NCBI GenBank assembly: GCA_965195195.1
Contig: CBDAFF010000039.1
Span: 137,188 to 201,187, forward strand
Direction: 5' to 3'
Source: an uncultured Anaerolineales bacterium
Lineage (GTDB): Bacteria; Chloroflexota; Anaerolineae; Anaerolineales; E44-bin32
Length of the DNA stretch: 64,000 nt
Shown piece by piece: positions 18,925 through 54,579 of the stretch. Position 1 is the first letter of the stretch. The number at the start of each line of letters is the position of its first letter. Both the position numbers and the translations under genes were made by a program. Under the pieces are notes generated by a model. It saw nothing but the letters and a program-made list of their open reading frames with translations. It did not search any database and was not told the DNA's origin.

Positions 18925-20262
18925 ATGTCGAAAAAAGAGTCAATATTGCCGCCCGCTGCGCTAAAACTTATCGAGCGTTTCAAACAAGGCGAAGCCACGA
19001 TTGGTGTTGTTGGTTTGGGTTATGTTGGACTGCCACTTGCCGTCGTCTTGGGGGAGGCCGGTTATCAAGTCATTGGTCTTGATGTAGATCCCGCAAAAAT
19101 TGAATTGCTGCGTGATGGAAAAAGTTACATCGAAGATATTGGCGATGAAATTTTGTCTCGGCTTGTGGACGATGGGCGCTTGAAGTTTACGACCGAGTAC
19201 GCAGACTTGGCTGAAGTTGATGGGGTCAGCATCTGTGTACCTACGCCATTGAGGAAAACAGGAGACCCTGACCTGTCCTATATCATCTCAGTCTCGAAAG
19301 CCCTGCGAGATGTCCTCCACGCCGGGATGTTGATCATCCTTGAATCCACCACCTATCCGGGAACGACGCGCGAACTCGTCCAGCCGGAGATGGAATCCAC
19401 GGGTTTAAAAGTGGGGGAGGATCTCTTTCTGGCCTTCTCACCAGAGCGAGTCGACCCGGGCCGGTCGGATTGGACAACTGTAAACACACCGAAGGTGATC
19501 GGCGGGATTACACCGGCTTGCACTGAAGTCGCAGCGACGATGTATGGTCGGGCGATGAAAACTATTGTTCCTGTCGCATCGACAGAAACTGCTGAAATGA
19601 CGAAGCTGCTCGAAAACACATTCCGGGCGGTCAATATTGGCCTGGTCAACGAAATGGCGTTGATGTGTGATCGTCTGGGCATGGATGTATGGGAGGTTAT
19701 CGAAGCCGCAGGGACGAAACCCTTTGGGTTCATGAAGTTCACTCCTGGACCTGGCCTTGGAGGACATTGCATCCCAATTGATCCACTCTACCTCTCCTGG
19801 AAATTAAAGAGCGTTAAGTACAACGCTCGTTTCATCGAGTTGGCCAGCGAGATCAATACGAACATGCCCCGCTATGTCGTCCAGCGGGTTCAAGATGCCA
19901 TGAATTTGATCGGAAAATCAATCCAGGGCTCGAAAATGCTCGTGTTAGGTGTGGCCTACAAGAAGGATGTCTCTGACGTCCGCGAGTCGCCCGCATTGGA
20001 TGTCATTGGGTTGCTCCTGGATAAAGGTGCACAGGTGGAATACCATGATCCTTATGTGCCTTTAACCGAAGGCGAGGGCTGGAGTTTAGAATCCAGCAGC
20101 GATGCTTTAGGTGCGGTGAAGCAGGCAGATTGTGTCGTTCTTGTCACCGACCATTCTGATTTCGATTACCAGGGAATCGCCAATGCCGCCAAGTTCATCT
20201 TTGATACTCGCAACGCGTTCCGGTACCGGGGGATCGAATCACCGAAGATTATGAGGCTCTAA
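18925..20262 (+). CDS. Nucleotide-sugar 6-dehydrogenase (UDP-GlcNAc/UDP-ManNAc dehydrogenase family; WbpA/TviB/WecC-like)
   Basis: Rossmann motif GLGYVGLP and catalytic-Cys block GLGGHCIPIDP. The exact substrate cannot be resolved from sequence alone. Confidence 0.85.
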   Translation: MSKKESILPPAALKLIERFKQGEATIGVVGLGYVGLPLAVVLGEAGYQVIGLDVDPAKIELLRDGKSYIEDIGDEILSRLVDDGRLKFTTEYADLAEVDGVSICVPTPLRKTGDPDLSYIISVSKALRDVLHAGMLIILESTTYPGTTRELVQPEMESTGLKVGEDLFLAFSPERVDPGRSDWTTVNTPKVIGGITPACTEVAATMYGRAMKTIVPVASTETAEMTKLLENTFRAVNIGLVNEMALMCDRLGMDVWEVIEAAGTKPFGFMKFTPGPGLGGHCIPIDPLYLSWKLKSVKYNARFIELASEINTNMPRYVVQRVQDAMNLIGKSIQGSKMLVLGVAYKKDVSDVRESPALDVIGLLLDKGAQVEYHDPYVPLTEGEGWSLESSSDALGAVKQADCVVLVTDHSDFDYQGIANAAKFIFDTRNAFRYRGIESPKIMRL

Positions 20263-21239
20263 TGGCGCGTTATCTCCTTTCAGGTGCCGCCGGTTTTATC
20301 GGCGCTCGAGTAGCCAGACATCTGCTGGATTCGGGGTCTATCGTCATTGGCATCGATAATATCAACGACTCCTACGATCCACGCCTTAAAGAGTGGAGGC
20401 TTGAACAGTTCCGGGATGATGATCGTTTCACTTTAAAACGAATCAATATTACCAACCGAGATGAACTTGAGCGTGCACTTGGTGATGAGCCTTATGATGG
20501 CGTGATCAATCTCGCCGCCCGAGCTGGGGTTCGCCAGAGCGTAAGCGATCCATGGGTTTATTATGAGACGAATGTCATCGGGGCTTTGAATCTACTCGAT
20601 GCCTGCCGCGATCGGTCTATTCCTAAACTTGTTCAGGCTTCGACGTCAAGCTTGTATGGGCTGCACAACCCCAGGCCATATAACGAGGACGCTGACACAA
20701 GCCAGCCACTCTCTCCCTATGCGGCATCGAAGGGTGCAGCGGAGATGCTCTGTCATAGCTATCACCACCTGCACGAGATGGATATCACCATCCTGCGTTA
20801 CTTCACGGTCTATGGACCCGCGGGCCGTCCTGACATGAGTGTTTTCCGGTTCATCCAATGGATTGCCGAAGGGCGACCTCTGGTTTTGTATGGTGATGGT
20901 CTTCAGGAGCGCGATTTCACATTTGTCGAGGATATTGCCCGGGGAACAGTGGCCGCTCTACGCCCGTTGGGTTTTGAGGTGGTTAACCTGGGGGGAGATC
21001 GCCCGGTAAAAATGATGGACGTGATATCTATGATTGAAGAGCGTCTCGGCAAGAGCGCTGACATCGATCAAAGGGAAACTGCACCTGCGGATATGCCCTC
21101 TACGTGGGCTGATATTCACAAGGCGCAGAGACTTCTCGACTGGCGCCCCGAGGTTTCGCTGGAGACAGGCTTGGAAGATGCAATCTCGTGGTATCTCCAG
21201 GAGCGGGATTGGGCGGAATCCATCCCAACCACTGACTAG
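20262..21239 (+). CDS. Extended-SDR NAD-dependent epimerase (UDP-glucuronate / UDP-HexNAcA 4-epimerase-like, TviC/Cap1J-like)
   Basis: GAAGFIG, IDNINDSYDPRLK and the YxxxK motif in SPYAASKGAAE. It is translationally coupled to the dehydrogenase. Confidence 0.8.
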   Translation: MARYLLSGAAGFIGARVARHLLDSGSIVIGIDNINDSYDPRLKEWRLEQFRDDDRFTLKRINITNRDELERALGDEPYDGVINLAARAGVRQSVSDPWVYYETNVIGALNLLDACRDRSIPKLVQASTSSLYGLHNPRPYNEDADTSQPLSPYAASKGAAEMLCHSYHHLHEMDITILRYFTVYGPAGRPDMSVFRFIQWIAEGRPLVLYGDGLQERDFTFVEDIARGTVAALRPLGFEVVNLGGDRPVKMMDVISMIEERLGKSADIDQRETAPADMPSTWADIHKAQRLLDWRPEVSLETGLEDAISWYLQERDWAESIPTTD

Positions 21240-22610
21240 ATGAGCATGCTCCGTTCGTTGTATCGCCTCGGCTCCGCTTCTCTGAAGCGATTTATTTCCC
21301 ATCCACTCTTTCAGCGTGTGATTCGTAACACGGGATATCTTTTCAGCGCGCAGACGATCGCGGCGGGTCTGAGTATGGGTCAGGGCATCCTGACGGCGAG
21401 GCTGCTAGGCGTTGAGGGGGCTGGTCTGGTTGGGATCATCACGCAGTTCTCTAGCAATATTTACCGTCTAATCTCTTTCCGCATGAGTGAGCTTGTCGTC
21501 AGTTTTGTGGGGGAATTCAGTGCAAAAGAGCAGGATGCACAGGCGGCAGCGGTGTTTAAAGCAGCGGCTTTTATAGAGTTGATCGGGTCAATCATAGCCT
21601 ATGGGCTTGTGGTTCTGCTCTCACCGCTGGCGGCGCGTCTCTTCGCCCACAATCCTGACCTCGCCCCCCTATTCGCTCTTTATGGATTCTACGTTTTAGC
21701 GAGTTTATTCTCTGAGAGTGCTATCGGCTTGCTTCAGTACTTCAATCGCTTTGGCGTGATTGCCTACGCGACGATCGGGCAAAGCATATTAACAATATTG
21801 CTCATCACTGCAGCTTTTATCCGCGGGGGCGATCTAACGGATATTGTCATCGCCTACCTGGTCGGAAAAGTGGTGTGGGGCCTATTTATTTCACTGGCTG
21901 GACTCTGGCAGGCGCATAAAGTGTGGGGTCGGGGATGGTGGCGAGCGCCTTTGTCGCTATTAGCTCCGCGCCGCGTAGAACTGGTGCGCTTTGGAATTAG
22001 CACGAATCTCTCTGGGACGAGTAAATTAATCTCAAGAGATAGCGAGATGCTCTGGCTGGCTTACTTCAGCACCCCATTGCAGGTGGGTTACTACAAGATT
22101 GCCAAGGCGATCATGAATATCCTGATGACCCCCGTTACTCCGTTAATCAGTACGACTTACAGGGAGGTAGCGAGAGAGGTTGCAAGCCGTCACTGGGAGA
22201 ACGTCCGCTACTTATTGCGCAGCGGGACTATTCTCGCTGCCGCCTGGACTTTACCTGCCAGCCTTGGGCTTGTGCTCTTTGGTCCTTGGGTAGTCGGTTT
22301 GTATGGACCGGATTTCCTTCCCACCTCCTATATCAATATTCTCATCCTTCTCGTCGGTGTGATAGCCGTCAACATTTTTTACTGGAACCAGCTTGTCCTG
22401 TTGCCGCTTGGTCTTCCTGATTACCCAGCTAAAGTCCATTTCGTATTCGCAATTGGCAAAGTCATTGGAACGATACTGCTTGTCCCTGTAATGGGCGCCA
22501 ATGGTATGGCGGCTTTATTCAGTGCTTACCTCTTCTTCACAACTGCAGTTCTTGTTTGGAAAACTCTACGAGAACTCCAGCGAGTTTCGATCGAACCAGC
22601 ACAGGCTTAA
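21240..22610 (+). CDS. MOP-superfamily polysaccharide flippase (Wzx-like)
   Basis: 456 aa, about 12-14 hydrophobic segments and Wzx-like composition, in a polysaccharide-locus context. Confidence 0.65.
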   Translation: MSMLRSLYRLGSASLKRFISHPLFQRVIRNTGYLFSAQTIAAGLSMGQGILTARLLGVEGAGLVGIITQFSSNIYRLISFRMSELVVSFVGEFSAKEQDAQAAAVFKAAAFIELIGSIIAYGLVVLLSPLAARLFAHNPDLAPLFALYGFYVLASLFSESAIGLLQYFNRFGVIAYATIGQSILTILLITAAFIRGGDLTDIVIAYLVGKVVWGLFISLAGLWQAHKVWGRGWWRAPLSLLAPRRVELVRFGISTNLSGTSKLISRDSEMLWLAYFSTPLQVGYYKIAKAIMNILMTPVTPLISTTYREVAREVASRHWENVRYLLRSGTILAAAWTLPASLGLVLFGPWVVGLYGPDFLPTSYINILILLVGVIAVNIFYWNQLVLLPLGLPDYPAKVHFVFAIGKVIGTILLVPVMGANGMAALFSAYLFFTTAVLVWKTLRELQRVSIEPAQA

Positions 22611-22625
22611 GGCGGTTGATTTATC

Positions 22626-23768: not shown

Positions 23769-25119
23769 TCTTGGCGCACGTTTAGGAACGTATGTACGGA
23801 AACGGGAATTCCTATGGCCAGGATCTCTTCTGCTGCTAGGGGTACTGTTGCGCGCCTGGCTGTGGTTCAGTTATGAACCGATATCCTATGGCGATACAGG
23901 ATCCTACATGCGTCTGGGGGAAGCCCTCAAAGATCTATCCTTCAGCGGTTATGACGGCACACGCGTTCCTGGTTACCCGGCCTTTCTGGCGCTGCTCGAC
24001 TTGCAGCCCGATCGAGTGTGGTTCGTGCAGATGCTCATGGGGCTGACGATATCGATGCTTCTGTACTGGATTACCTGGCGGACGACGAACAGTATGGTGC
24101 TCGGTTTTGTCGTTGGCGCTCTCTACAATCTAATCCCCGGGCAGTTCCTCTTTGAAGCCAACCTCCTGACGGAAACGCTTACGACGTTCTTTGTCGTTTT
24201 AAGTCTTTGCCTGTTCGTTTGTTTCACGCGCGTTCGAAGCCCTGCTTGGGGCTATGGTCTCGTGCTATTACTGGGAGTGGCAGTCAGCGTGGTGGGTTTG
24301 ATCCGTCCTTTATTTTTCCCATTAACGATATGGTTCCTTCCCTTTATCTGGCTTGCAGCAAACGGGGATTGGAAAAAAAAGCTGCTGTTCGTCGCGTTGT
24401 ATTCCCTGGGTCCGTTAATCCTGCAGGGCAGCTGGTTGGTCTACATGAAACAGCATTATCACGTACTATCGCCCACAGCGATGGCGGGATACAGTCTCGT
24501 GCAGCATACGGGGGAGTACTTCGAATTTCTTCCCGATGAGTACGCATCTATTCGCGACACCTATATCCGCTTCCGGGATGCGCAGATTGCTGCGCGCGGG
24601 GTGCAGACCAATGCCATCTGGGAGGCGATCCCGGAGATCTCGAAGGCATCAGGTTTAGGTTTCTATGAGCTCGCGCGCGAGATGCAGCGGCTCTCTTGGT
24701 GGTTGATTCGGCATCATCCTGATCTCTATTTAAAAAACGTCATCGTCGGCTGGATCTCGTTCTGGAAAGCGCCCGTTTATTGGCGTCCAGAAGCGGTACA
24801 ATCGGTATTTGCAGGGGGAATCTTGAGTGGGATAGCGATTGTTGGAAGAGGAATCTCCCTGCTGGCGAATTTCCTGTTCCTCGTTTTTAGTGTGTTGGTT
24901 GCCGCAAGTGCCAAGTGGCGCCGAAGATTGCAGTTCGATTTAATTTCTATGGCGGTGGGTGGGATGATCTGGATGATTTCCATCCTGCAAACGCTCCTCG
25001 ATCATGGCGACAACCCGCGTTTTCTTGTACCTTTGCAGGTATTGGTACTTTACCTGGTTGTCCGTAGTCTCTGGTTTTGGAGCAAGGGAAGAGTCGGCCT
25101 GGAGGTCATTGACCGTTGA
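23758..25119 (+). CDS. Polytopic membrane protein, GT-C-like (ArnT/PMT_2-like) putative glycosyltransferase
   Basis: About 12 predicted TM segments. There is an acidic motif in the first extracytoplasmic loop (EPISYGDTGSY) and a C-terminal DNPRFLVPL motif shared with the next gene. ATG 23758 overlaps the GT4 stop, and the track's longer N-terminus (23653) is read through the GT4 gene. Confidence 0.55.
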   Translation: MLHDLGARLGTYVRKREFLWPGSLLLLGVLLRAWLWFSYEPISYGDTGSYMRLGEALKDLSFSGYDGTRVPGYPAFLALLDLQPDRVWFVQMLMGLTISMLLYWITWRTTNSMVLGFVVGALYNLIPGQFLFEANLLTETLTTFFVVLSLCLFVCFTRVRSPAWGYGLVLLLGVAVSVVGLIRPLFFPLTIWFLPFIWLAANGDWKKKLLFVALYSLGPLILQGSWLVYMKQHYHVLSPTAMAGYSLVQHTGEYFEFLPDEYASIRDTYIRFRDAQIAARGVQTNAIWEAIPEISKASGLGFYELAREMQRLSWWLIRHHPDLYLKNVIVGWISFWKAPVYWRPEAVQSVFAGGILSGIAIVGRGISLLANFLFLVFSVLVAASAKWRRRLQFDLISMAVGGMIWMISILQTLLDHGDNPRFLVPLQVLVLYLVVRSLWFWSKGRVGLEVIDR

Positions 25120-26696
25120 AACGAATTGGGATTGCCCTGGCGTGGATCCTCCCGATGCTGGCTGCTTGCGCCATCTTGTCCAGTTCTGATCTCTTTGGCT
25201 TCACCATCCAAGGCTGGTTGGCTTATTCACTATTAATGAGCATCTCCTTGCTCATTATTTATTTCGTTTGGGTTTATTTTCGCAGGGAAGGCGCGGGAAA
25301 AGCCTTACTTGTGGCTGCCCTGGTCGCCTTGGGTTTGCGAGTTCTCGTGGGGGTCGTGCTCTATCGGGGTTTGCCAATCTGGGGTTATGATGAGAAACCA
25401 CAAAGGGCTGGTTATGTGTTCTGGGATTCTTACAAACGCGATACCGATGCCTGGTCACGATCCGGCATGGACCAAGCTCTTACAACCGCGTTTACAAACC
25501 CGACGGGAAGCGACCAGTACGGGGGGTTGCTATTTCTTAGCTCCAGCATCTATCGCTATCTCAGCCCGGATACCCAGCGCCCATTATTAATCGTCGTAAT
25601 GTCGGCCGCGGTTTCGGCACTGGCGGTGCTTTTCACTTGGGGATTTGCGGCTTCTGTTATGGGGGACAAGGTGGCGATGATTACTGCCTGGATCGTTGCG
25701 CTATATCCTGAGGCGGTGCTGCTGGGGGCATCGCAGATGCGCGAACCATTTCTCATTGCTGCCCTGGCTGCTGCCCTTTATGGTTATTCACGGATGCGGA
25801 AAGGGGAGTTGAAGGGTGGGATCGCGATCGTCGTGGCATCTGCATTGATATTGGCTTTGCCGATATCACCACCATTTGTGATCGTGATTTTTGCGATTAT
25901 CGCCTCGGCTTGGTTTTGGGAAGGGCTTGGAATTGGGCCGCGCAGAAGGTTATTCGTTCTAGTTCTTCTCGGCGTGATTGTCCTGGCAGCTCTAGCACTC
26001 GCCGTCCGAGCGTGGGCGGGTTTGGATGCCATCGCCGGCTCCCCTTGGGAAGTTGTTCGCGAATGGTGGGTGAATGCAGGAGATCAATGGCGGGTTACAC
26101 TCGTCAGCGAACAATCAGATATGCTCGATACCCTGCTTGATCGTTTGCCGGCCAGTTTTCAGACCCCTTTCCTCGTCCTATATGGTCTCATCCAACCTTT
26201 CTTGCCGGCTGCCCTGATTGCACCGGGTGCGCCTATCTGGCGCAGCATCGGTATTTGGCGCAGTCTGGGATGGTTCCTGATGCTGCCGTTTCTGCTGTAT
26301 GGGACTTGGCTGGCTTTCAGGAGAAAGGGATGGAGGAGCTTGGAGAGCTATCTCGCCGTTCTAATCTGGGTGACGGCGTTGATTTCCTCCTACCGTGCCC
26401 CGGGGTACCAGTGGGATAACCCCCGCTATCGGGTTATATTCCTTGCAGCCCAGGCTGCTCTAATCGCATGGACTTGGGTTGAGGTGCGTCGTATTGAAAG
26501 CCCCTGGCTGAAACGCTGGTTTGTAATCCTTAGCGTTGACTATCTGCTCGTTACGTATTGGTATATCGGTCGATACTACGACACGCCTTCACTCGGCCTG
26601 GAAGCAACATTAGGGAGTATTCTCTTCTTCACGGTCGTCTATCTGGTAGGAATGCTCCTCTCTGACGTTATTCGTACGAAAAAACTACGGAGCTAG
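25116..26696 (+). CDS. Polytopic membrane protein, GT-C-like glycosyltransferase or polymerase candidate
   Basis: 526 aa and highly hydrophobic. Loop motifs WDSYKRDTDAW and YPEAVLLGASQMREPF, plus a C-terminal WDNPRYRVIF. It overlaps the upstream gene by 4 nt. Confidence 0.5.
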   Translation: MKRIGIALAWILPMLAACAILSSSDLFGFTIQGWLAYSLLMSISLLIIYFVWVYFRREGAGKALLVAALVALGLRVLVGVVLYRGLPIWGYDEKPQRAGYVFWDSYKRDTDAWSRSGMDQALTTAFTNPTGSDQYGGLLFLSSSIYRYLSPDTQRPLLIVVMSAAVSALAVLFTWGFAASVMGDKVAMITAWIVALYPEAVLLGASQMREPFLIAALAAALYGYSRMRKGELKGGIAIVVASALILALPISPPFVIVIFAIIASAWFWEGLGIGPRRRLFVLVLLGVIVLAALALAVRAWAGLDAIAGSPWEVVREWWVNAGDQWRVTLVSEQSDMLDTLLDRLPASFQTPFLVLYGLIQPFLPAALIAPGAPIWRSIGIWRSLGWFLMLPFLLYGTWLAFRRKGWRSLESYLAVLIWVTALISSYRAPGYQWDNPRYRVIFLAAQAALIAWTWVEVRRIESPWLKRWFVILSVDYLLVTYWYIGRYYDTPSLGLEATLGSILFFTVVYLVGMLLSDVIRTKKLRS

Positions 26697-42324: not shown

Positions 42325-42358
42325 TTCGTCCACACCGCAGAGCTTGAGGATATACAAG

Positions 42359-46169: not shown

Positions 46170-47138
46170 ATGCTGACGATATTCAGCGCGCCTAAACCTT
46201 TTTCTGACCCGCATATTGCGCGAATACAGCGAAACGCGATCGCTTCTTGGCTGCACCTTGGTGAGGAAGTTGAGGTCCTACTTATTGGAGACGAGCTAGG
46301 GCTGGCGGAAGTAGGAGCTGAACTCGGGGTTAAGGTGCTTCGAGATGTAGAGAGGAACGAGGAAGGCACCCCGCTCATCTCCTCAATATTCCAATTGGCG
46401 AGCCGTGAGTCGCAACACCCCTTTCTCTGTTATGCAAACGCCGATATCCTGCTTTTTGAAGATCTCATAGATGCAGTTCAACATATCTCATCTCGGTTCA
46501 ATGACTTTCTTATCCTTGGGCAACGATGGGATCTTGATCTAGAGCAGGAGCTAACCTTTGACGAGGGTTGGCCGCGGAGATTAATGGAGAATGTGCAGTC
46601 GCGAGGGCGAAGACACCCACCAATGGGCAGCGATTACTTCATCTTTCGGAAGGAGTTGTTTCAAGATATCCCAGCCTTCGCATTGGGCAGAGCGGGGTGG
46701 GATAATTGGATGATCTACGCGGGACGGAGAGCCGGCGTCCCGGTCGTCGATGCCAGTGAAGCGATTACCGTGGTCCATCAGAATCATGATTATCAACATC
46801 TTCCGAACAACCAACCCCACTACCGCTTACCGGAAAGTCTACGTAATATCGAGTTAGGCGGTGGCCGCGAGACTATATTCAATCTGTCGGATGCGACCTG
46901 GCGCATGGACCAAGAATCGCTTCTTCGGAATTATCCAATGCGGATAGGTATTAGACGCTGGGTGGAAACGGAATGTATCAGCCGATTTGGACCAGGGCGA
47001 TCGGCGCGGGTGATACAGCGACTTCTACACCCGATCCAGACTCTTCGTCAGTCAAAGGATGTCTTATGGCGCAGACTGAATAGCAAAGAAGCAAGTTCGA
47101 ATAATTCACCTACTATAGACGGGAGTCGAGGATCTTAA
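46170..47138 (+). CDS. Hypothetical protein, possibly a GT-A-fold transferase
   Basis: 322 aa and soluble. The N-terminal MLTIFSAPKPF and the YANADILLF segment resemble nucleotide-diphospho-sugar transferase strands. I recognise no family with confidence. Confidence 0.35.
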   Translation: MLTIFSAPKPFSDPHIARIQRNAIASWLHLGEEVEVLLIGDELGLAEVGAELGVKVLRDVERNEEGTPLISSIFQLASRESQHPFLCYANADILLFEDLIDAVQHISSRFNDFLILGQRWDLDLEQELTFDEGWPRRLMENVQSRGRRHPPMGSDYFIFRKELFQDIPAFALGRAGWDNWMIYAGRRAGVPVVDASEAITVVHQNHDYQHLPNNQPHYRLPESLRNIELGGGRETIFNLSDATWRMDQESLLRNYPMRIGIRRWVETECISRFGPGRSARVIQRLLHPIQTLRQSKDVLWRRLNSKEASSNNSPTIDGSRGS

Positions 47139-47139
47139 G

Positions 47140-48308: not shown

Positions 48309-49268
48309 ATGAGAAAGGGACAAAACCCAGCCAAATTTGTAAAACATGTTGCCAAACCGAAGCGCATAACGGTTGCGGTACTTACATACATCCCATTTCT
48401 AAGTGGTTACTATGCCGAATCCCTGGACGTTCTGACAGCTTGCCTTAACAGCCTTTGGCAAAACACAACTCTCCCCTTTGATCTTATGATATTCGATAAC
48501 GGAAGCTGTCCTGAGGTCGTAGGGTTTTTACAACACGCATTCCAAGAGGGAAGAATTCAATATCTTGTTCTCTCGGAGAAGAATCTGGGAAAGGGGGGAG
48601 CTTGGAACGTTATTTTCGAAGCGGCTCCTGGCGAGATCCTTGCCTATACCGATAGCGACGCCTATTTCCATTCCGGCTGGTTAGAAGCTTCGCTTGAAGT
48701 CCTCGAGATGTTCCCTAATGTGGGAATGGTCACAAGCCGACCTTTTCGAACGCCACCAGAATTATTCTCAAAGACCATCGAGTGGGCAGAGGCCGCGCCT
48801 GATGTAGATATTGAACGAGGTCAATATATCCCATGGGAAGCTTTCCGGGAGTTCGATATGAGCTTGGGGCAGGATGAAGATGAAGTACGGGCACGATATA
48901 CTTCTACAGAGGATGTCCGTCTTACCTATCGAGGCACTACAGCCTATGTGGGAGCATCCCATTGGCAATTTGTAGCGTGGAAGCCGGTTATTCGTCAATT
49001 TACACCGTTCGAGATGAATCGACCGATGGGCCAGGTTCGAGAGTTAGATCGAATGGTGGACCAAGCCGGATTGCTTCGCCTTATGACGTCCGAGCCTTTG
49101 GCGATGAACATGAGCAACACACTGCAATCGATCCCTGAAGAGGGTACTTCTCGCGGCTCTAAAGTTCAATCTCGTTCTCTAGGTATGATGATCCTGGAAA
49201 TTCCACTTATTAAACGGTTGTTACTCTTCATCTATAACCGGATCTTCCGTTGGTATTACTCAAAATAA
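48309..49268 (+). CDS. GT-A (GT2-like) glycosyltransferase, paralog 2
   Basis: VLTYIP...IFDNGSCPEV, AYTDSDAYFHSGWL and a C-terminal IYNRIFRWYY, which matches LYNRLFWLL in paralog 1. Confidence 0.7.
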   Translation: MRKGQNPAKFVKHVAKPKRITVAVLTYIPFLSGYYAESLDVLTACLNSLWQNTTLPFDLMIFDNGSCPEVVGFLQHAFQEGRIQYLVLSEKNLGKGGAWNVIFEAAPGEILAYTDSDAYFHSGWLEASLEVLEMFPNVGMVTSRPFRTPPELFSKTIEWAEAAPDVDIERGQYIPWEAFREFDMSLGQDEDEVRARYTSTEDVRLTYRGTTAYVGASHWQFVAWKPVIRQFTPFEMNRPMGQVRELDRMVDQAGLLRLMTSEPLAMNMSNTLQSIPEEGTSRGSKVQSRSLGMMILEIPLIKRLLLFIYNRIFRWYYSK

Positions 49269-49281
49269 TGCAATATTAAGT

Positions 49282-50760
49282 TTGCTGAATATTAGGATTG
49301 GAATGGGTAGCAAAACAATATTTATTACGGCAGATCATGGCCTGGCCATTGTTTACTTCCTGCAGACGGAAGTTTATAAAACGCTGCAGGAAGGCGGCGC
49401 CGAAATCGTGGTTCTAACGGATGATGGCCTCGTTGAACAAATTTCCCAACGCTTTCAGGATACAGGTGTGATCATTGAGGGGATGCGTCTGGCGCAGGTG
49501 CGGGAGTATGAGCGAGTCTCTTCAGACTTACAGTGGTGGCTGGGTTTTCTGCGCAGGGTAGGGGGCTCGAATCGAATCAACACCACGGCAATGGATAGCT
49601 ATGTTGACCAGGTTTTAGTTGAAGCTTCCCCACGGCAAGTTCCAGTTCTGCCTTTTGCATGGTTGCTCTTGTTGCTATTACGCCGTTCTGCGCGGGTTCG
49701 CCAAGCTCTTGTGGACTATCAACGGAAGTTCACCGCGAATATCTACGATGATCTTTTTGAGCGATATCAACCCTACCTTGTTGTCGGGAGCACACCGGGA
49801 TGGCGGCAGGACCGCTATCTACTTCGGGAGGCGGCTGCGCGTGGAGTACGCACCGCCTCAATCATCCTGGGTTGGGATAACCCGAGCAGCTACAGCCTGT
49901 CGGGAGCGCCCGTTGACAGCATTACTTGCTGGTCCGAAATTCAGAAAGAAGAACTAATACTTGGATCCGATTGGCTTCCAGAGGACGTGAGTATTGGAGG
50001 AATCCCGATCTATGATGGGTACTTCAAGAAACAGTGGTTGATGCCGCGCGAGGATTATTTCAGATTGCACGATTTGGATCCTGATCGAAAGTTGCTCTCC
50101 TACGCATGCAGCTTTATAAGTTTCTCGCCGAATTATCAGAACATTGAAGCCTTGGCGGAATTGGTTTCTTCAGATGCTCTTGTCGAACCGTCTCAGTTGC
50201 TGGTCAGATTACATCCGAATCACTTCTGGGACAATTGGCTGTTTCAAGATGAGCGAGAGCGAATTTACAAGCTGGCGAGTGAACTGCCTCACGTACACGT
50301 TGTAGAGCCGGTGCCGATCGGCGGCGAGCTAGGCTACTATTCTGGTGAGGACATGCCTGAGAAGGCTTCGATGATGGCACACGCGGACGTCTTTCTCACT
50401 GTGTATTCAACCATGGTCGTTGAAGCGGCGATTCACGATCGACCGGTCGTGAGTGTATGCATCGACGCACCAAAAGGGTGGGGATACGTCAGAAAGTTTT
50501 ACCTGCGGAAATATTCCCTTCCGCTCTCGAAAATCGGCGACTGGCCTACGCATGACCGATTCCGAAAATCGGGAGCTGGAAAAGTTGTTTACGATATTGC
50601 CCAACTGCAGGAAGCTATCAATAGCTATTTGAAACATCCGGGTGCCGACTCGGAGAATCGCAGGTCCTTTATCGAGCGAGAAGTGACGTTCACAGATGGC
50701 AGTGCAGGTCGGCGAACGGGCGAGATACTGCTTTCGATGCTTGAGGATGGAGCAAAATGA
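49282..50760 (+). CDS. Putative GT-B-like transferase (TagF/Capsule_synth-like surface carbohydrate biosynthesis protein)
   Basis: 492 aa and soluble. Blocks LLSYACSFISFSPN and LLVRLHPNH, then DVFLTVYSTMVVEAAIHDRPVV, a GT-B C-terminal-domain-like region. The family assignment is tentative. Confidence 0.4.
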   Translation: MLNIRIGMGSKTIFITADHGLAIVYFLQTEVYKTLQEGGAEIVVLTDDGLVEQISQRFQDTGVIIEGMRLAQVREYERVSSDLQWWLGFLRRVGGSNRINTTAMDSYVDQVLVEASPRQVPVLPFAWLLLLLLRRSARVRQALVDYQRKFTANIYDDLFERYQPYLVVGSTPGWRQDRYLLREAAARGVRTASIILGWDNPSSYSLSGAPVDSITCWSEIQKEELILGSDWLPEDVSIGGIPIYDGYFKKQWLMPREDYFRLHDLDPDRKLLSYACSFISFSPNYQNIEALAELVSSDALVEPSQLLVRLHPNHFWDNWLFQDERERIYKLASELPHVHVVEPVPIGGELGYYSGEDMPEKASMMAHADVFLTVYSTMVVEAAIHDRPVVSVCIDAPKGWGYVRKFYLRKYSLPLSKIGDWPTHDRFRKSGAGKVVYDIAQLQEAINSYLKHPGADSENRRSFIEREVTFTDGSAGRRTGEILLSMLEDGAK

Positions 50761-51734
50761 AGTTTATGATCGCTGGTCTTGGTTCAATTGGTCGCCGACA
50801 CTTGAGAAATCTCAAGGCGTTAGGCGAGGAAGATATTGTGCTCTACCGTTCGGGTCAGAGTACGCTTCAAGATGATGAGTTAGGCGGATACATCACAGAA
50901 ACGGAACTCAATGCTGCTTTAGCCCATAAACCTGATGCTGTGATCGTGTCCAATCCAACGGCTTTGCATCTCGATGTGGCCATCCCAGCGGCTGAAGCGG
51001 GTTGTCATCTCTTGCTCGAGAAACCCATCTCGCACGACCTGGATCGTGTGGATGAACTGCTGGCAGCAGTTAAGCGCGGCGGCGGCAAGGTGTTGGTTGG
51101 CTATCAGTTTCGCTTTCATCCCGGGCTGCAGGATGTGAAGCGATGGTTGATAGAGGGGCGGATTGGCAAACCGATCAGCGCGCATGCACATTGGGGGGAG
51201 TACTTACCCGACTGGCACCCATGGGAGGATTATCGCCAATCTTACGCCGCCCGGCGAGATCTCGGTGGAGGGGTCGTTCTGACACTCTGCCATCCCTTCG
51301 ATTATCTGCGCTGGCTGATGGGTGAGGTAATTTCTGTGGCAAGTTGGACAGGTCAAATAGGGAAGTTAGATCTTGAAGTCGAAGATATTACGGAAGCGAT
51401 CCTAGAATTCGATTCGGGGGCTGTCGGGCACGTCCATTTAGACTACTTCCAGAGACCGCCCGCACATAGGCTCGAGATTGTCGGAACAGAGGGTACGATT
51501 CGCTGGGATAATGCAGATGGGTATGCGAGCATCTATCGGATTGCGGAAGGTAAATGGGAAAGCAGCTCACTTGCAGACGGTTTTGACAGGAACGCTTTGT
51601 TCATGGCTGAGATGAAGCACTTTATTGATGCCGCCAGGGGTGATGTAGAACCAGTGTGTCCCTTAGATGATGGAGTCCGGACTCTTAAGTTAGCACTTGC
51701 GGTTCTTTCATCTGAAAATGGAGATCTTATCTAG
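50757..51734 (+). CDS. Gfo/Idh/MocA family NAD(P)-dependent oxidoreductase
   Basis: N-terminal Rossmann motif GLGSIGRRH, plus the EKP motif (LLLEKPIS). The ATGA at its start overlaps the stop of the upstream gene. Confidence 0.85.
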   Translation: MKFMIAGLGSIGRRHLRNLKALGEEDIVLYRSGQSTLQDDELGGYITETELNAALAHKPDAVIVSNPTALHLDVAIPAAEAGCHLLLEKPISHDLDRVDELLAAVKRGGGKVLVGYQFRFHPGLQDVKRWLIEGRIGKPISAHAHWGEYLPDWHPWEDYRQSYAARRDLGGGVVLTLCHPFDYLRWLMGEVISVASWTGQIGKLDLEVEDITEAILEFDSGAVGHVHLDYFQRPPAHRLEIVGTEGTIRWDNADGYASIYRIAEGKWESSSLADGFDRNALFMAEMKHFIDAARGDVEPVCPLDDGVRTLKLALAVLSSENGDLI

Positions 51735-51868
51735 ATTGTTGAGGATCGAATAAGATTTACACATATTTCCAGAGAATAGGATAACATCTTCTCTTGCTGA
51801 AAGGCGTGATGTGTTAAAACCTCAATGGAAGGAAATTATTCAAAGCACTTGGAGCGCTAGACTTTAAA

Positions 51869-53449
51869 GTGGGAAAAATGGACCGGAGGACATCAGCGAT
51901 TAGTAGTTATAACAAATATTGGGGGGCAATCGCCATTGCTGCACTTTGTATTGTGGGCGTGATTTTGATTCTTTACTTCACGCGTTCAAGCCCTGGAGTG
52001 AGCGGCGATTCTGTCTGGTACATGATGGGTGCAGAAAATATGCTGGCGGGCAATGGGTACAGCCGGACGTCTGGAGGGGGCGAGATCAAGCCGATTGTAG
52101 GGTTTCCGCCGTTCTTCTCGATGGTGCTTGCCGGTTTAGGAACCATGGGTTTAGATTTGTTTGTGGGCTTGAGATGGTTAAATGCGCTCATGTTTGGAAT
52201 GAGTGCTTTCCTCATCTGGAGACTCATCCTTCAATATACCGGGTCGAAGTGGGTTTCATTAGCCGGCGCGGTCTTGTTCTTAGGAAGTTCATCGCTCATT
52301 AAATACCACAGCTGGGTAATGTCGGAGGGGCTTTACATCCTCTTGCAGCTCACTGTTTTCTCTTTACTTATCGCATATATTAATTCTGAAAAAAAGATCT
52401 TATGGGTATTAGCGGCCGTAATAACTGGAGCTGGGATACTAACGAAGTATATCGGTCTCAGCCTTCTGTTTTCAGGTGCACTTACGATATTTTTCTTCAG
52501 CAAGAAAAGCTGGAAAGCGAAGTTACTCAATTCGCTTCTTTACATCTTCGTTGCATCCTTGCCGGTTGTGGTTTGGTTTATGAGGAACTCCACTTTGGGT
52601 GGTAATCTCACCAATAGGACTTTTACTTATCATCCGATGAGGTTAGATTTACTCGAAATATATAAATACGAAATCGGAAACTGGTTTCTTCTTCATAGAT
52701 TCATAGCTTGGGACCAAAGATTCCTACTAGTGGCATTAATAGCAGTAATTGGGCCATTGTACTTTCTATACGTGCAGTTTAATAGATGGGGATCAAAACA
52801 GCCCACGCTTCAAAATAATACTCGCGTACTTCCATGGCTGCTAATTTTCAATACCATAGCTTTCTTGATGATACTGGTTATAAATTCAACATTTCTGGAT
52901 GCTGCCACGACACCGTCAGCTCCAGAGAGATATCTCGTACCTTTGTATGTCACATCAATAATCCTTATTCTTATTACGACTTATGACCTTATTACCCATT
53001 CGCGTTTAAAAACTGTGTTAGCCCCCGCGCTTGCGGCAGTTCTGATATCCATCACCTTTTTACATATCCAGAACTCCTTTGATCTATACGGAAAAAATGG
53101 AGTTGATTTAGGGTATCAATCATTGAAAGCGCAGAATCCAAGTCTGGTTGCAGGGTTACAGGGTATTAGCCAGGATCGAATTTTATATTCGGATAATCCC
53201 GAGCGGACATACGCGCTTACTGGTAGAACGGCATATTTCTTTCCCGTCGAATATAGCAGATATACTCAACAGTCAAACCCAAACTATTTTGAGCAAATCG
53301 ATCAGATACGTGTTGGGCTGCAGGCAGGCGGTAGACTTATCATTTTCGGCGATATCGAAGAAGATCGAGAAGGAGTGCTCGATCTTCTCGATTTGGTAAC
53401 CCTGGAATCATTTCAGGGTGCGACGGTCTATGGTTATCGGGACAATTGA
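51869..53449 (+). CDS. GT-C membrane glycosyltransferase, ArnT/PMT_2 (GT39/GT83)-like; AT-rich
   Basis: About 12 TM segments. The first-loop motif is GVSGDSVWYMMGAENMLAGNGY, there is a KYIGLSLL segment, and the C-terminal domain is soluble. Confidence 0.6.
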   Translation: MGKMDRRTSAISSYNKYWGAIAIAALCIVGVILILYFTRSSPGVSGDSVWYMMGAENMLAGNGYSRTSGGGEIKPIVGFPPFFSMVLAGLGTMGLDLFVGLRWLNALMFGMSAFLIWRLILQYTGSKWVSLAGAVLFLGSSSLIKYHSWVMSEGLYILLQLTVFSLLIAYINSEKKILWVLAAVITGAGILTKYIGLSLLFSGALTIFFFSKKSWKAKLLNSLLYIFVASLPVVVWFMRNSTLGGNLTNRTFTYHPMRLDLLEIYKYEIGNWFLLHRFIAWDQRFLLVALIAVIGPLYFLYVQFNRWGSKQPTLQNNTRVLPWLLIFNTIAFLMILVINSTFLDAATTPSAPERYLVPLYVTSIILILITTYDLITHSRLKTVLAPALAAVLISITFLHIQNSFDLYGKNGVDLGYQSLKAQNPSLVAGLQGISQDRILYSDNPERTYALTGRTAYFFPVEYSRYTQQSNPNYFEQIDQIRVGLQAGGRLIIFGDIEEDREGVLDLLDLVTLESFQGATVYGYRDN

Positions 53450-53601
53450 TTAGAGGCATTGCAGATCATCCGGGCTGGTCAGTATCAGGATGGGGTTTGA
53501 ACAGAGAAATGGAGTTGTAACGGAACTCAATTCCTTTGTATGTACAAATCCTATAGAGCAGAAAGGCAAACGAGCCAGTGAAGACACTTAATCGAGGTTG
53601 A

Positions 53602-54579
53602 GTGACTATGCCTAAAGAGACGATCCAAGAATCTTCCATACAGGAAATTTCCGTGGTCCTGCCGATCTTCAATGAGGCAACCACAATTAATCGGGTGCTA
53701 GCGAGTGTGATTGAGAAGCTTAAGTCAGAAGGCGCTGACTTCGAGGTGATTGCTGTCGATGATGGGTCAACGGACGGGACACCCGAACAATTGACAGCGC
53801 TTCGAAAGTTATACCCGAAGCATGTTAGGGTTGTGCGGCACTTAATCAATCGTGGAAATGGCGCAGCCCTAAGGTCTGGAACACGAATTGCGAAGGGCTC
53901 AATCATTGTATATATGGATGCCGATGGGCAGCATACGCCCGATGATATTCACAAGTTGCTCGATTTGATTCCTCCTTATGACTTGGTTATTGGTTCACGC
54001 ACCAAAGAGTATCAAAGCAGTTGGTACCGAAGAATTGCTAACAATTTCTATAACCGATTTGCTAGCTGGTTGTCGCAAACCGAGGTAAAAGATTTAACCT
54101 CTGGGTTTCGCGCAATGCGGCGGGAGGCAGTCGTACATTTTCTTCCATTATTCCCGAATGGTTTCTCTGCGCCAACGACAACGACGCTGGCATTCCTCAA
54201 AGCAGGTTACAATGTCGCCTTTTTGCCCATCCATGTGGGAAAGAGAGCTGCAGGAAAAAGTAAAATTAATATTTGGAGTGATGGTGCTCAGTTCCTTTTG
54301 ATTATCTTGAGGATGATCATGCTTTATGATCCGCTGAGGATCTTCTTCCCGGCGGGTGTGATGCTCAGCTTGCTAGGCTTCTTAGCGGGGCTTGCGGGGA
54401 TACTGAACGCTCATCGATTGGTCCTGTCCAACTCCGCGATTTTACTTTTCCTAGCAGCGATCCTGACCTGGCTCTTAGGATTAATCGCAAGTCAGGTGGC
54501 GAGCACGTTGATTCATTATCACGGTGATGAAACGATCATTGTTGACGATTCCCCGTATGACCTTAGTTCATCCGATTGA
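53602..54579 (+). CDS. GT2 polyprenyl-phosphate sugar synthase-like glycosyltransferase (GtrB/DPM1-like) with C-terminal TM helices
   Basis: VVLPIFNE, VDDGSTDGT, MDADGQH (DxD) and C-terminal TM helices. The real start may be ATG 53608, which has GAGG 9 nt upstream. Confidence 0.8.
   Translation: MTMPKETIQESSIQEISVVLPIFNEATTINRVLASVIEKLKSEGADFEVIAVDDGSTDGTPEQLTALRKLYPKHVRVVRHLINRGNGAALRSGTRIAKGSIIVYMDADGQHTPDDIHKLLDLIPPYDLVIGSRTKEYQSSWYRRIANNFYNRFASWLSQTEVKDLTSGFRAMRREAVVHFLPLFPNGFSAPTTTTLAFLKAGYNVAFLPIHVGKRAAGKSKINIWSDGAQFLLIILRMIMLYDPLRIFFPAGVMLSLLGFLAGLAGILNAHRLVLSNSAILLFLAAILTWLLGLIASQVASTLIHYHGDETIIVDDSPYDLSSSD

Follow-up and report, generated by a model that had tools for sequence, protein, structure and literature searches.

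We analyzed a window of 64,000 nucleotides of DNA from an uncultured Anaerolineales bacterium (Chloroflexota; GenBank assembly GCA_965195195.1, contig CBDAFF010000039.1, positions 137,188 to 201,187 of the forward strand), in which positions 18925-54579 encode five large polytopic membrane proteins with features of GT-C glycosyltransferases (GTs), here called TM1 to TM5, together with two putative polyprenyl-phosphate sugar synthases, two candidate flippases and an ABC-2 exporter. A TM3 homolog on a contig of "Anaerolineales bacterium CSMAG_804" is 99% identical, and a 100%-identical protein is on record in an NCBI contig; an exact-sequence look-up of TM3 and TM5 gave no match, probably because of start-codon differences. 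The listing of open reading frames (ORFs) counts 30 plus-strand ORFs in an unbroken series of ~36 kb, in agreement with an earlier note on this DNA that had proposed about 30 consecutive genes, and the coordinates given there for the five polytopic proteins are confirmed. The cluster is a real, one-strand 36-kb locus, predicted to serve a cell-envelope sugar polymer. Family scans (Pfam copy of 2025, NCBIfam of 2026) took in the 30 locus ORFs and most ORFs of at least 100-120 amino acids (aa) elsewhere in the window; the minus-strand ORFs at 18925-54579 all lie inside plus-strand genes and were excluded. The assignments, which reproduce the gene list of the earlier note, are as follows:

18925-20262, + strand: Ugd, UDP-glucose 6-dehydrogenase; three UDPG_MGDP_dh domains, E 1e-43 to 9e-26
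20262-21239, + strand: Epi1, sugar-nucleotide epimerase/decarboxylase-type short-chain dehydrogenase/reductase (SDR); Epimerase E 7e-59, below all NCBIfam equivalog cut-offs
21240-22610, + strand: Wzx/MOP-family flippase; Polysacc_synt 60.5 bits, Polysacc_synt_3 49.8 bits
22626-23768, + strand: GT4a, GT4 glycosyltransferase; Glycos_transf_1 / Glyco_trans_1_4, no predicted transmembrane (TM) helix
23758-25119, + strand: TM1, PMT_2-like GT-C, 453 aa; PMT_2 E 2.6e-3, below cut-off
25116-26696, + strand: TM2, probable ArnT/PMT_2-like GT-C, 526 aa; family members match PMT_2
26774-27859, + strand: Gmd, GDP-mannose 4,6-dehydratase; GDP_Man_Dehyd E 8e-133
27866-28900, + strand: GT2_PP1, putative polyprenyl-phosphate sugar synthase, ArnC/GtrB/PgfS-like GT2; NCBIfam ArnC
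28897-29877, + strand: LPGTM, MprF-type flippase-like membrane protein (LPG_synthase_TM / UPF0104); PF03706, TIGR00374
29884-31863, + strand: TM3, GT-C-fold protein of a family without a name, 659 aa; AlphaFold2 (AF2) model and Foldseek
31953-33977, + strand: TM4, GT-C-fold protein, at most distantly DUF2298-related, 674 aa; AF2 model and Foldseek
34122-34649, + strand: MarR/winged-helix regulator; HTH_24 E 7e-14
34728-35693, + strand: Epi2, GDP-L-fucose-synthase-like SDR; NCBIfam Fcl 297 bits against a cut-off of 500
35709-36569, + strand: Wzm, ABC-2 permease; ABC2_membrane E 1e-19, 71.4 bits
36576-37835, + strand: Wzt, ABC ATPase with a C-terminal Wzt_C carbohydrate-binding domain; ABC_tran E 2.6e-21, 77.1 bits
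37832-39466, + strand: P544, KpsS/KpsC-like (Capsule_synth) putative CMP-ulosonic-acid glycosyltransferase; PF05159
39453-40382, + strand: MT1, S-adenosylmethionine (SAM) methyltransferase; Methyltransf_11 E 6e-16
40388-41392, + strand: PseB, UDP-GlcNAc 4,6-dehydratase (inverting); TIGR03589 494.7 bits against a cut-off of 407.75
41404-42324, + strand: RmlD-like 4-keto-sugar reductase; RmlD_sub_bind E 1e-56, rmlD 195 bits against a cut-off of 224
42275-43162, + strand: MT2, SAM methyltransferase; Methyltransf_25/11/23
43181-44254, + strand: NeuB/PseI-family nonulosonic acid synthase; NeuB E 1e-64 and SAF domain
44251-45372, + strand: GT4b, GT4 glycosyltransferase; Glycos_transf_1 E 6e-31
45297-46124, + strand: CMP-sugar cytidylyltransferase (KdsB/NeuA-type); CTP_transf_3 E 2e-30, KdsB-type models 48-78 bits, below cut-offs
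46170-47138, + strand: soluble 322-aa protein amid the glycosyltransferase block; no Pfam or NCBIfam match, no TM helix
47140-48189, + strand: GT2b; Glycos_transf_2 E 6e-13, no C-terminal TM segment predicted
48309-49268, + strand: GT2c; Glycos_transf_2 E 1e-14, one marginal C-terminal TM segment
49282-50760, + strand: P492, 492 aa, putative GT-B glycosyl-/glycerophosphotransferase-like protein, weakly BFO_1060-like; Glyphos_transf E 1.3e-4, below cut-off
50757-51734, + strand: GFO/IDH/MocA oxidoreductase (sugar dehydrogenase type); PF22725, PF02894, PF01408
51869-53449, + strand: TM5, PMT/PMT_2-type GT-C, 526 aa; PMT_2 25.1 bits against a cut-off of 26.1
53602-54579, + strand: GT2_PP2, putative second polyprenyl-phosphate sugar synthase, AglJ/ArnC/PpgS-like GT2; NCBIfam

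The start of TM1 is ambiguous between 23758, used here, and 23653 (488 aa). The earlier note described many genes as joined by ATGA or GTGA overlaps of 4 nt; such overlaps are present, but "many" amounts to 5 of 29 junctions, two of them TTGA (TM1/TM2 and NeuB/GT4b), the others being ATGA at GT2_PP1/LPGTM and P492/GFO and GTGA at Wzt/P544. Ugd and Epi1 overlap by 1 nt and the remaining junction gaps are mostly <=20 nt, with wider gaps of 77-152 nt upstream of Gmd, TM4, MarR, Epi2, GT2c, TM5 and GT2_PP2. The left flank of the locus is housekeeping in character (pst/phoU genes, tsaE, tsaB, rimI and udg).

As had been proposed from the letters alone, the five membrane proteins are all GT-C-like, TM3 and TM4 at the fold level only; for TM1, TM2 and TM5 the evidence is similarity to PMT/PMT_2 at the level of their families, and for TM3 and TM4 it is AF2 modelling combined with Foldseek searches. 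By its family profile, TM5 appears to be a PMT/PMT_2-type GT-C, its own score lying just below the PMT_2 cut-off. The family comprises 5,960 cluster representatives at E<=1e-3; among 62 relatives 46 match PMT_2 and 38 match PMT, and the profile matches the solved protein O-mannosyltransferase Pmt (9i5k) with E 6e-5, while a single-sequence search of the PDB with TM5 returned nothing meaningful. In 62 sequences of 23-82% identity D47, P81 and R354 are invariant, and P358 is kept in >=90%. D47 belongs to a SGDSVxY motif in the loop after the first TM helix, which is predicted to lie outside.

TM1 is homologous to TM5 as judged by profile alignment: hhalign matched it to the TM5 family with a probability of 96.2% (E 2.8e-9) over 206 columns that include the GD[ST]xxY motif. 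Conserved in TM1 are D46, in a predicted outside loop, T47, S49, Y50 and the stretch DHGDNPRFLxP; the C-terminal motif D418-N-P-R421-F-L-x-P is kept at >=90% in the family, and R-[FY]-L-x-P is shared with TM5. TM2 itself has no Pfam match. Its family has 801 homologs, some of them source-named ArnT-like, and PMT_2 is matched by 12 of 55 aligned relatives, from which TM2 is probably an ArnT/PMT_2-like GT-C; D104, R108, D109, E210 and a WDxPRYR motif (W433, D434, P436, R437, Y438, R439) are invariant. Sequence and profile searches of the PDB with TM1 and TM2 gave nothing meaningful. Three C-terminal motifs had led to the suggestion that at least three of the membrane proteins are distant paralogs. 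The motifs are present, and each is conserved within its own family (TM1, TM2, TM5). BLASTP and phmmer found no significant match among any pairs of the five proteins, and with hhalign the suggestion stands for TM1 and TM5, is marginal for TM2 (15.9% against TM5, 0.5% against TM1) and TM4 (56%, E 1e-4, against the TM5 family, starting from TM5 residue 94 and TM4 residue 171), and fails for TM3, for which every profile-profile probability against TM2, TM4, TM1 and TM5 is <2%.

TM3 represents a large family that lies outside the family models. At least 3,040 homologs were found (clusters at 90% identity, E<=1e-3, out of 8,000 scored candidates), and a set of 60 diverse members gave no match to any Pfam model at E<=0.01; TM3 has no NCBIfam match, and its best PDB sequence match, with E 0.46, is not significant. 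The AF2 model (predicted local distance difference test, pLDDT, 89.5; predicted TM-score, pTM, 0.88) shows ~15 TM helices followed by a C-terminal alpha/beta domain. When this model was searched against the PDB with Foldseek, ranks 1-5 and 7 were taken by STT3, AftA, ArnT, EmbB and PimE (best E 5.5e-4, probabilities 0.87-1.00, TM-scores 0.26-0.43). The invariant residues E183, R186, H209, R212, R315, K451, H459 and D462 are all in predicted outside loops. E183, invariant in 60 sequences, is part of a loop of 60 residues (167-226) that contains short helices and is predicted to be outside; this loop comes after the fifth helix of TM3 and might be equated with the canonical first extracellular loop of GT-C enzymes.

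TM4, with 502 homologs, was modelled with a pLDDT of 92.4 and a pTM of 0.93, and also ends in an alpha/beta domain. The top 13 Foldseek matches in the PDB are all GT-C enzymes, led by AglB and including DPY19, AftA, ALG12, PglB, STT3 and ArnT (E 9.6e-6 to 1.1e-3, probability 1.00, TM-scores 0.33-0.48). D125 is kept in 63 of 63 relatives and D126 in 60 of 63, in a predicted outside loop; D125 would be aligned opposite D47 of TM5 by extrapolation, with the register of the profile match extended N-terminally. Conserved acidic residues in loops predicted outside are thereby found in TM5 (D47), TM1 (D46), TM4 (D125/D126) and TM3 (E183), as the earlier note had anticipated. The window protein has no DUF2298 (PF10060) match and 3 of 63 relatives do (best E 4.1e-6), so that by sequence TM4 may at most be distantly related to DUF2298, on which we found essentially no literature. 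Sequence and profile searches of the PDB with TM3 and TM4 gave nothing meaningful, and the soluble domains at the C-termini of TM3, TM4 and TM5 showed no detectable relationship to one another. For TM3 and TM4, a positive-inside count on the modelled helices assigns both the C-terminal domains and the long loops that are conserved to the outside; in TM3 the short inside loops hold 13 K/R and the short outside loops 1. Each C-terminal domain has a conserved Cys pair, C633/C658 in TM3 (>=90%) and C644/C668 in TM4 (invariant), in keeping with an extracytoplasmic location.

Within its C-terminal domain TM4 carries W628-W629 (window 33834-33842 corresponds to residues 628-630), kept in 60 of 63 relatives and followed by D, E, Q or N. 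An assignment of TM4 as an STT3-type oligosaccharyltransferase (OST) from this "WWD" was considered and rejected: the D is present in 25 of 63, no Y-G follows, and there is no STT3 match.

These features bear on the possibility that the locus serves glycosylation of S-layer or other surface proteins, with TM3 and/or TM4 as OSTs that transfer a lipid-linked glycan, exported by the ABC transporter or flipped by Wzx, en bloc and the other GT-Cs adding terminal sugars in the manner of AglS. The S-layer glycan of Geobacillus stearothermophilus is made by the ABC-transporter route and carries a methyl cap. Structurally, STT3, AglB and PglB are among the best matches of TM3 and TM4, but ArnT, AftA, ALG12 and DPY19 match about equally, so that OSTs are not singled out. 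The WW[D/E/Q/N] of TM4 is conserved in its C-terminal domain; WWDYG is not, no WWDYG-type motif occurs among the conserved columns of TM3, and the Pfam STT3 model has 0 matches in 123 members of the TM3 and TM4 families. The nearest described neighbourhood of a GT2, a UPF0104 protein and a GT-C belongs to archaeal N-glycosylation (PMC5898192), but no S-layer or acceptor protein gene lies within the locus. On balance we regard protein glycosylation as unlikely.

We then turn to conservation. A pattern scan with one genome per species gave at least 450 genomes with a TM3 relative; the best 80 of 450 are all Chloroflexota, mostly Anaerolineae or Anaerolineales. The 30 window proteins were mapped onto the loci of these 80 genomes, with 10-kb flanks around TM3. 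The flanks reach ~41.8 kb of the window, which puts NeuB and the genes after it outside the count, except for TM5 and GT2_PP2, which were followed through other loci. The recurring order is Ugd-Epi1-Wzx-GT4a-TM1-TM2-Gmd-GT2_PP1-LPGTM-TM3-TM4-MarR-Epi2-Wzm-Wzt-P544-MT1-PseB-RmlD-like-NeuB, and it is found in dozens of Anaerolineae species genomes at protein identities of 40-50%. Among the 40 loci whose 10-kb flanks are complete, LPGTM is present in 40, Wzm/Wzt in 37, TM2 in 31, GT4a and Gmd in 28 each, Wzx and GT2_PP1 in 27 each, MarR and P544 in 24 each, TM1 in 21 and TM4 in 16. Ugd, often outside the fetched flank, takes the first position in 19 of 40; Wzx adjoins GT4a-TM1-TM2 in 27 of 40, and MT1 follows P544 in 20 of 40. 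In 63 of 74 loci the TM3 homolog has LPGTM immediately upstream, and in 40 GT2_PP1 is the next gene in that direction. Only 2 of 845 homolog hits are on the opposite strand, and the contigs that carry the order are independent, up to 3.4 Mb long and from many species.

The 3.4-Mb Anaerolineaceae chromosome CP070708.1 (locus L087, 1573168-1594745) shares its left flank with the window: an ABC ATPase, DUF4349, Metallophos, tsaE, tsaB, rimI and udg. There follow Ugd, in the same place, Epi1, Wzx, a GT4, a TM2 that is 46% identical, Gmd, a GT2, MarR and an epimerase; LPGTM, TM3, TM4 and Wzm/Wzt are absent at this site. The locus is hence modular and ordered across the class, and in the one relative that was compared it keeps its place on the chromosome. 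Such conservation throughout the class, and the shared chromosomal site in one relative with a complete genome, speak for a polymer of the core envelope and against a strain-variable antigen.

The earlier note had named two outcomes that would speak against it, namely membrane proteins devoid of a GT-C core and an assembly chimera whose synteny is missing in relatives; both were looked for, and what was found is GT-C character in all five proteins and an order strongly conserved across Chloroflexota. A chimera, or a random pile-up of unrelated membrane proteins, could be read into the fall of GC from ~0.52 over most of the locus to ~0.45 past 51.8 kb, the low-GC patch at 41.4-43.2 kb and a mobile-element-like insert at 54.9-57.9 kb. 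The repetition of the order on independent contigs of many species and the left flank tsaE-tsaB-rimI-udg kept in CP070708.1 leave this explanation with next to no credence.

Modularity also raises the question whether two or more independent glycans are encoded, namely an ABC-transporter homopolymer and, from the genes Ugd to TM2 and with a GT-C-like protein as polymerase, a heteropolysaccharide that depends on Wzx. CP070708.1 keeps the Wzx module without LPGTM, TM3, TM4 or Wzm/Wzt, other genomes have GT2-LPGTM-TM3-Wzm-Wzt with no Wzx module within 10 kb, and the 77-152-nt gaps together with the internal MarR gene suggest several transcription units. However, no Wzy, Wzz or initiating transferase was detected, module order and strand are constant in most species, and Gmd and its partner reductase sit in different modules, which links these metabolically. 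We find separate glycans quite improbable.

The two GT2 enzymes at 27866 and 53602 had been described as GtrB/DPM1-like, and this holds: their best NCBIfam models are ArnC, PgfS, AglJ and PpgS, and both have paired C-terminal TM helices. GT2_PP1 scores 232.6 bits with ArnC (E 5.6e-69) and 160.9 bits with PgfS, both below the equivalog cut-offs, and its two helices span 262-280 and 301-321; GT2_PP2 scores 104 bits with AglJ, 87 with ArnC and 69 with PpgS, all below cut-offs. GT2b and GT2c are without the paired C-terminal helices of GtrB-type GT2s. The UPF0104 flippase-like protein reported at 28897 is likewise borne out, LPGTM passing the cut-offs of PF03706 (118.5 bits against 33.4, E 5e-34) and TIGR00374 (65.8 bits against 43.2). 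It has no aminoacyl-phosphatidylglycerol synthase domain, and its role as a flippase is predicted from the family. No Pfam match to GtrA was found in the scanned ORFs, and the small ORFs around TM5 and GT2_PP2 are not membrane proteins; the Gtr-type three-component features present here are a GtrB-like GT2 with TM helices and a GT-C encoded alongside.

A TM5-type GT-C followed by a GT2 is conserved in three further loci (L084, L085 and L086). On the unrelated metagenomic contig of L086 (L086:2951-6715), a TM5-like GT-C, a GT2 and an LPG_synthase_TM protein stand in a row, with a MetW-like methyltransferase adjoining. The GT-C/GT2/MprF-like triad recurs a second time, independently, in L086. 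We found no literature on a GT-C combined with LPG_synthase_TM.

With respect to export, the earlier note had read both Wzx- and Wzm/Wzt-type systems in the locus, and both families are present. The matches to ABC2_membrane, ABC_tran and Wzt_C support the Wzm/Wzt type; Wzt_C scores 30.7 bits against a cut-off of 30.4 and is also recorded in the homologs at L002 and L003. Wzx as a second route of polymer export is less likely. Because there is no Wzy or Wzz, Wzx would, by analogy with GacK and WpsG, more likely be a flippase for a lipid-linked donor. Also in line with the earlier note, no Pfam match to Wzy_C/O-antigen ligase, Wzz, OPX or a Bac_transf/MraY-type initiating transferase was found in the scanned window ORFs, and no initiating phosphoglycosyltransferase or ligase for the acceptor is among the annotated neighbours of the TM3 loci L002 and L003 or in L087 (CP070708.1). 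The initiating transferase and the ligase may be encoded elsewhere in the genome.

P544 overlaps wzt by 4 nt and passes the cut-off of PF05159 (24.9 bits against 20), with a weak PDB match to KpsC (E 0.12). [quoted passage not shown] H369-P370 is invariant in 35 relatives, and an invariant N328xxxD332, 37 residues upstream of HP, stands in place of QxxxD; Q339-D343 was considered for this motif and set aside in favour of N328xxxD332, as D343 is not conserved. P544 is a putative CMP-ulosonic-acid transferase on these sequence features, which could cap or prime the chain.

For the supply of sugars, Epi1 probably acts on UDP-GlcA, and Gmd with Epi2 would yield a GDP-6-deoxyhexose. PseB scores above its equivalog cut-off, and the NeuB-family synthase reaches 251 bits with the NCBIfam NeuB model and 239 bits with PseI, both below cut-offs. 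No aminotransferase or N-acetyltransferase was found in the Pfam scan of the 30 locus ORFs. The nonulosonic acid is probably not pseudaminic acid itself; from the RmlD-like reductase, it could be a variant with a 7-hydroxy instead of the second (7-) amino group. The GFO protein matches a UDP-GlcNAc 3-dehydrogenase model with 88.9 bits, below the cut-off. P492 matches BFO_1060_trans with E 1.6e-7 (30.8 bits against a cut-off of 200) and has an RLHP motif; a sequence and profile search of the PDB gave nothing meaningful. The methyltransferases would make O-methyl sugars or a cap; the walls of Chloroflexus and Herpetosiphon contain a peptidoglycan-bound polysaccharide with O-methyl sugars, and a product attached to the wall would agree with this. 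MT2 and the cytidylyltransferase run into their upstream genes by 50 nt and 76 nt, respectively, and their true starts are probably further downstream.

P544 and LPGTM could also be combined into a different scheme, a lipoglycan built on a phospholipid primer as in group-2 capsules: P544 would start the chain by placing a CMP-activated ulosonic acid on phosphatidylglycerol, Wzm/Wzt export it, LPGTM move a glycosylated phospholipid, and TM3 join or extend the chains. This would account for the lack of a phosphoglycosyltransferase in the scanned window and in the gene lists of L002, L003 and L087, although the gene for an initiator may lie elsewhere in the genome, as does wecA in Enterobacteria. 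In favour of the scheme, the Capsule_synth cut-off is passed by P544, whose gene is coupled to wzt, and the locus has both a NeuB-family synthase and a cytidylyltransferase of KdsB-like type; yet Wzt_C suggests a cap at the non-reducing end, and P544 as a terminator like WbbB fits at least equally. The known substrates of MprF flippase domains and of the flippase of glucosaminyl-phosphatidylglycerol (GlcN-PG) are phosphatidylglycerol derivatives (PMC5898192, PMC12713373), and LPGTM and GT4a weakly match GlcN-PG flippase and synthase models, but with 21 and 24.7 bits, far below cut-off, and the GT2_PP1 beside LPGTM is clearly ArnC/GtrB-like, which argues for a polyprenyl-phosphate donor. We consider such a lipoglycan improbable.

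Based on these observations, we propose, with moderate confidence, that the locus directs the synthesis of a cell-envelope glycopolymer conserved among Anaerolineae, along a hybrid route in which a chain assembled and exported from the cytoplasm is worked on outside by GT-C enzymes. Starting from gene content, family and fold, predicted topology, conserved residues and synteny, we infer substrates, pairings, the order of steps and the product as follows. Ugd and the SDR would supply UDP-GlcA-derived sugars, Gmd and the Fcl-like reductase a GDP-6-deoxyhexose, and PseB, the RmlD-like reductase, the NeuB-family synthase and the cytidylyltransferase a CMP-nonulosonic acid. In the cytoplasm, GT4b, GT2b, GT2c, P492 and P544 would assemble a chain on a lipid carrier with the help of the methyltransferases, while the initiator may be encoded elsewhere; P544, translationally coupled to wzt, would probably cap or prime the chain with an ulosonic-acid residue. 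Wzm/Wzt would move the completed chain across the membrane, and the carbohydrate-binding domain of Wzt implies that a terminal cap may be recognized. On the outside, the five GT-Cs would extend, branch or attach the polymer from lipid-phosphate-linked sugars, the donors being charged at the inner face by the membrane-anchored GT2s (27866 and 53602) and flipped by LPGTM (28897) and/or Wzx (21240). The tightest unit would be LPGTM with TM3, usually with the ArnC-like GT2 upstream; TM3 would act as a GT-C transferring from lipid-phosphate sugars by analogy, its use of such donors being suggested by gene context. TM5 and GT2_PP2 would form a separate two-gene module, and Wzx-GT4a-TM1-TM2 a lipid-linked oligosaccharide module comparable with lactococcal WpsG/WpsI/WpsJ. 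The final acceptor, whether peptidoglycan, lipid or protein, would be specified outside the window.

Several points weigh against this proposal. The GT-C status of TM2 is based on PMT_2 matches in 12 of 55 relatives, and the TM-scores of TM3 and TM4 are low, their fold class being carried by ranking and probabilities and not by superposition. No initiating phosphoglycosyltransferase and no LCP- or WaaL-type ligase, for the start and end of the pathway, was found in the scanned window ORFs, and with PseB above its equivalog cut-off the pseudaminic-acid set (PseB, C, H, G, I, F) is nevertheless incomplete. GT2_PP1 is absent beside LPGTM-TM3 in about one third of the loci, and CP070708.1 has GT2_PP1 with Wzx and TM2, in a locus without LPGTM and TM3; because GT2_PP1 varies in this way relative to LPGTM-TM3, the pairing of donor synthase, flippase and GT-C is ambiguous. 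Finally, experiments have identified the MprF-type domain as a flippase of phospholipids, and this family is not known to flip polyprenyl-phosphate sugars.

The earlier note had called the density of GT-C-like membrane proteins unusual. The combination of genes that it described is present, but it is not exceptional in principle, as rhamnose polysaccharide loci, a mycobacterial cluster and an archaeal neighbourhood share its logic; the logic of the pathway is not new. Capped ABC-dependent O-antigen and S-layer pathways, such as those of E. coli O9a (WbdD) and Raoultella/Klebsiella O12 (WbbB, beta-Kdo cap), likewise have Wzm and a Wzt with a carbohydrate-binding domain, and the methyltransferases and the KpsC/WbbB-like putative ulosonic-acid transferase beside wzt extend the likeness; genes for a GDP-mannose-derived 6-deoxyhexose are shared with the gmd-rmd-wzm-wzt cluster of the P. 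aeruginosa common polysaccharide antigen. Unlike in these pathways, there is no WaaL, lipopolysaccharide (LPS) or outer membrane, and P544 is only distantly related to KpsC. In mycobacterial arabinogalactan and lipoarabinomannan synthesis (Rv3781/Rv3783, AftA-D, EmbA-C, decaprenylphosphoryl arabinose, Rv3789), a lipid-linked primer exported by an ABC-2 transporter is extended outside by GT-Cs that use a polyprenyl-phosphate sugar, as would be the case here, and AftA is among the best structural matches of both TM3 and TM4. Unlike in mycobacteria, the locus has no decaprenylphosphoryl-phosphoribose synthase (UbiA-type) or DprE genes, its donors would be made by GT2s, and there is no sequence similarity to Emb or Aft.

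In rhamnose wall polysaccharides an ABC-exported rhamnan is decorated by systems of undecaprenyl-phosphate (Und-P) sugar, Wzx and GT-C, with several GT-Cs per locus (PMC9574508). The Anaerolineae locus resembles the streptococcal and lactococcal loci (GacI/J/K/L; WpsA/B, WpsG, WpsI and WpsJ; CsdAB-CflA; PMC9574508) in having an ABC-2 exporter, Wzx, GT2 Und-P-sugar synthases, several GT-Cs and a monoderm host. It differs in that: (i) dTDP-rhamnose genes are absent, with GDP-6-deoxyhexose and nonulosonic acid in their place; (ii) GtrA- or GacJ-type small proteins are replaced by an MprF-type flippase-like protein; (iii) there are five GT-Cs, two of them from families without names, and a Wzt with a carbohydrate-binding domain; and (iv) there is no LCP ligase or initiating GT. 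TM3 and TM4 have no detectable sequence relationship to named families in a comparison that stopped short of GacL and WpsJ.

Three-component systems act on ABC-dependent O antigens with a non-GtrA flippase, and the flippase family is interchangeable, being SMR/GtrA or, in Citrobacter youngae, of the MATE family (PMC11127046). As in these systems (GtrA/GtrB/Gtr*; C. youngae ORF15/ORF14/ORF12, GT136; PMC11127046), the locus combines a synthase for a lipid-phosphate sugar with a flippase and with a GT-C that would act after polymerisation on an ABC-exported glycan. What differs is that the flippase candidate is of the MprF/UPF0104 type, that the donor synthase is a GT2 and not a phosphoribosyltransferase, that there are several GT-Cs per locus, and that the locus is class-wide and not a serotype-variable add-on. 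For archaea, a 2015 study predicted a neighbourhood of arCOG00899 (UPF0104), arCOG00563 (PMT/STT3-like) and arCOG00897 (AglD-like GT2) whose members would cooperate in glycosylation (PMC5898192). This AglD/AglS-type neighbourhood has its like here in a GT2 grouped with an MprF-like flippase domain and with a membrane enzyme, TM3, that may be a distant PMT/STT3-like protein; the triad here differs in being bacterial, in consisting of three separate genes instead of an AglD-type fusion, and in its link to Wzm/Wzt and a large polysaccharide locus and not to AglB-dependent N-glycosylation.

What is new is: (i) TM3, a large GT-C-fold family that has no Pfam or NCBIfam model; (ii) the near-obligate pairing of TM3 with an MprF-type flippase-like protein in bacteria; and (iii) the conservation, throughout the class, of a locus that holds four to five GT-Cs. 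The pairing provides the strongest support that we found in bacterial gene neighbourhoods for a participation of MprF-type domains in glycan assembly, previously a prediction of comparative genomics in archaea. Chloroflexota are without LPS and BAM genes, yet some members have multilayered or diderm-like envelopes (PMC13319060), and the class-wide conservation bears on what forms their outer layers; with this locus there is a concrete candidate, at the level of genes, for a major polymer of the envelope, and it offers five GT-Cs, two candidate flippases and two polyprenyl-phosphate sugar synthases, all predicted, as targets. A bolder idea, which we consider doubtful, is that LPGTM and TM3 are a dedicated two-protein machine, ancestral in Anaerolineae, by which a lipid-linked sugar or glycolipid is delivered outside and used to build or anchor the class-wide polymer, perhaps the non-lipid outer layer of those Chloroflexota that appear diderm in tomograms, and perhaps primed by P544 on phosphatidylglycerol instead of undecaprenyl diphosphate. 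If true, the MprF-type domain would be a general flippase for glycolipids or polyprenyl sugars, and TM3 would found a new GT-C (CAZy) family.

At its right end, past GT2_PP2, the locus is followed by these features:

54878-57915, + strand: putative small mobile insertion; 105-aa ORF, Replic_Relax protein, FtsK/TraG-like ATPase; GC ~0.45
58127-58741, - strand: MetW-like methyltransferase; Methyltransf_11/23, MetW

Between 54579 and 58127, the ~3.5-kb stretch has the appearance of a small mobile element inserted into the glycan locus and dividing it, and it is probably what ends the locus on the right at 54579. The Replic_Relax protein (PF13814) lies at 55283-56263 and the FtsK/TraG-like ATPase (DUF87, FtsK_SpoIIIE, TraG-D_C) at 56263-57915; an imperfect 27-nt inverted repeat (54745-54771 / 58028-58054) flanks the insertion, and no tRNA gene in the window marks it. 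The methyltransferase beyond is 49% identical (E 3e-66) to the one adjoining the TM5-like/GT2 pair in L085, and by this similarity probably belongs to the TM5/GT2_PP2 module.

Low GC is found in the RmlD-like reductase (0.46) and MT2 (0.434), at 41404-43162, and in TM5 (0.436, 51869-53449); the TM5 and GT2_PP2 stretch as a whole has a GC of 0.44-0.47. These patches suggest mosaic acquisition of some genes.

Past the insertion, two minus-strand ORFs (58957-60534 and 60527-61969) overlap each other by 8 nt. The 480-aa partner of this pair has no Pfam or PDB match. The 525-aa protein has four N-terminal TM helices and a weak Sulfatase match (E 3.9e-4, below cut-off), searching the PDB for matches to it gave nothing meaningful, and in architecture it would be LtaS/GacH-like. 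The two proteins may add phospho-substituents to the same glycan.

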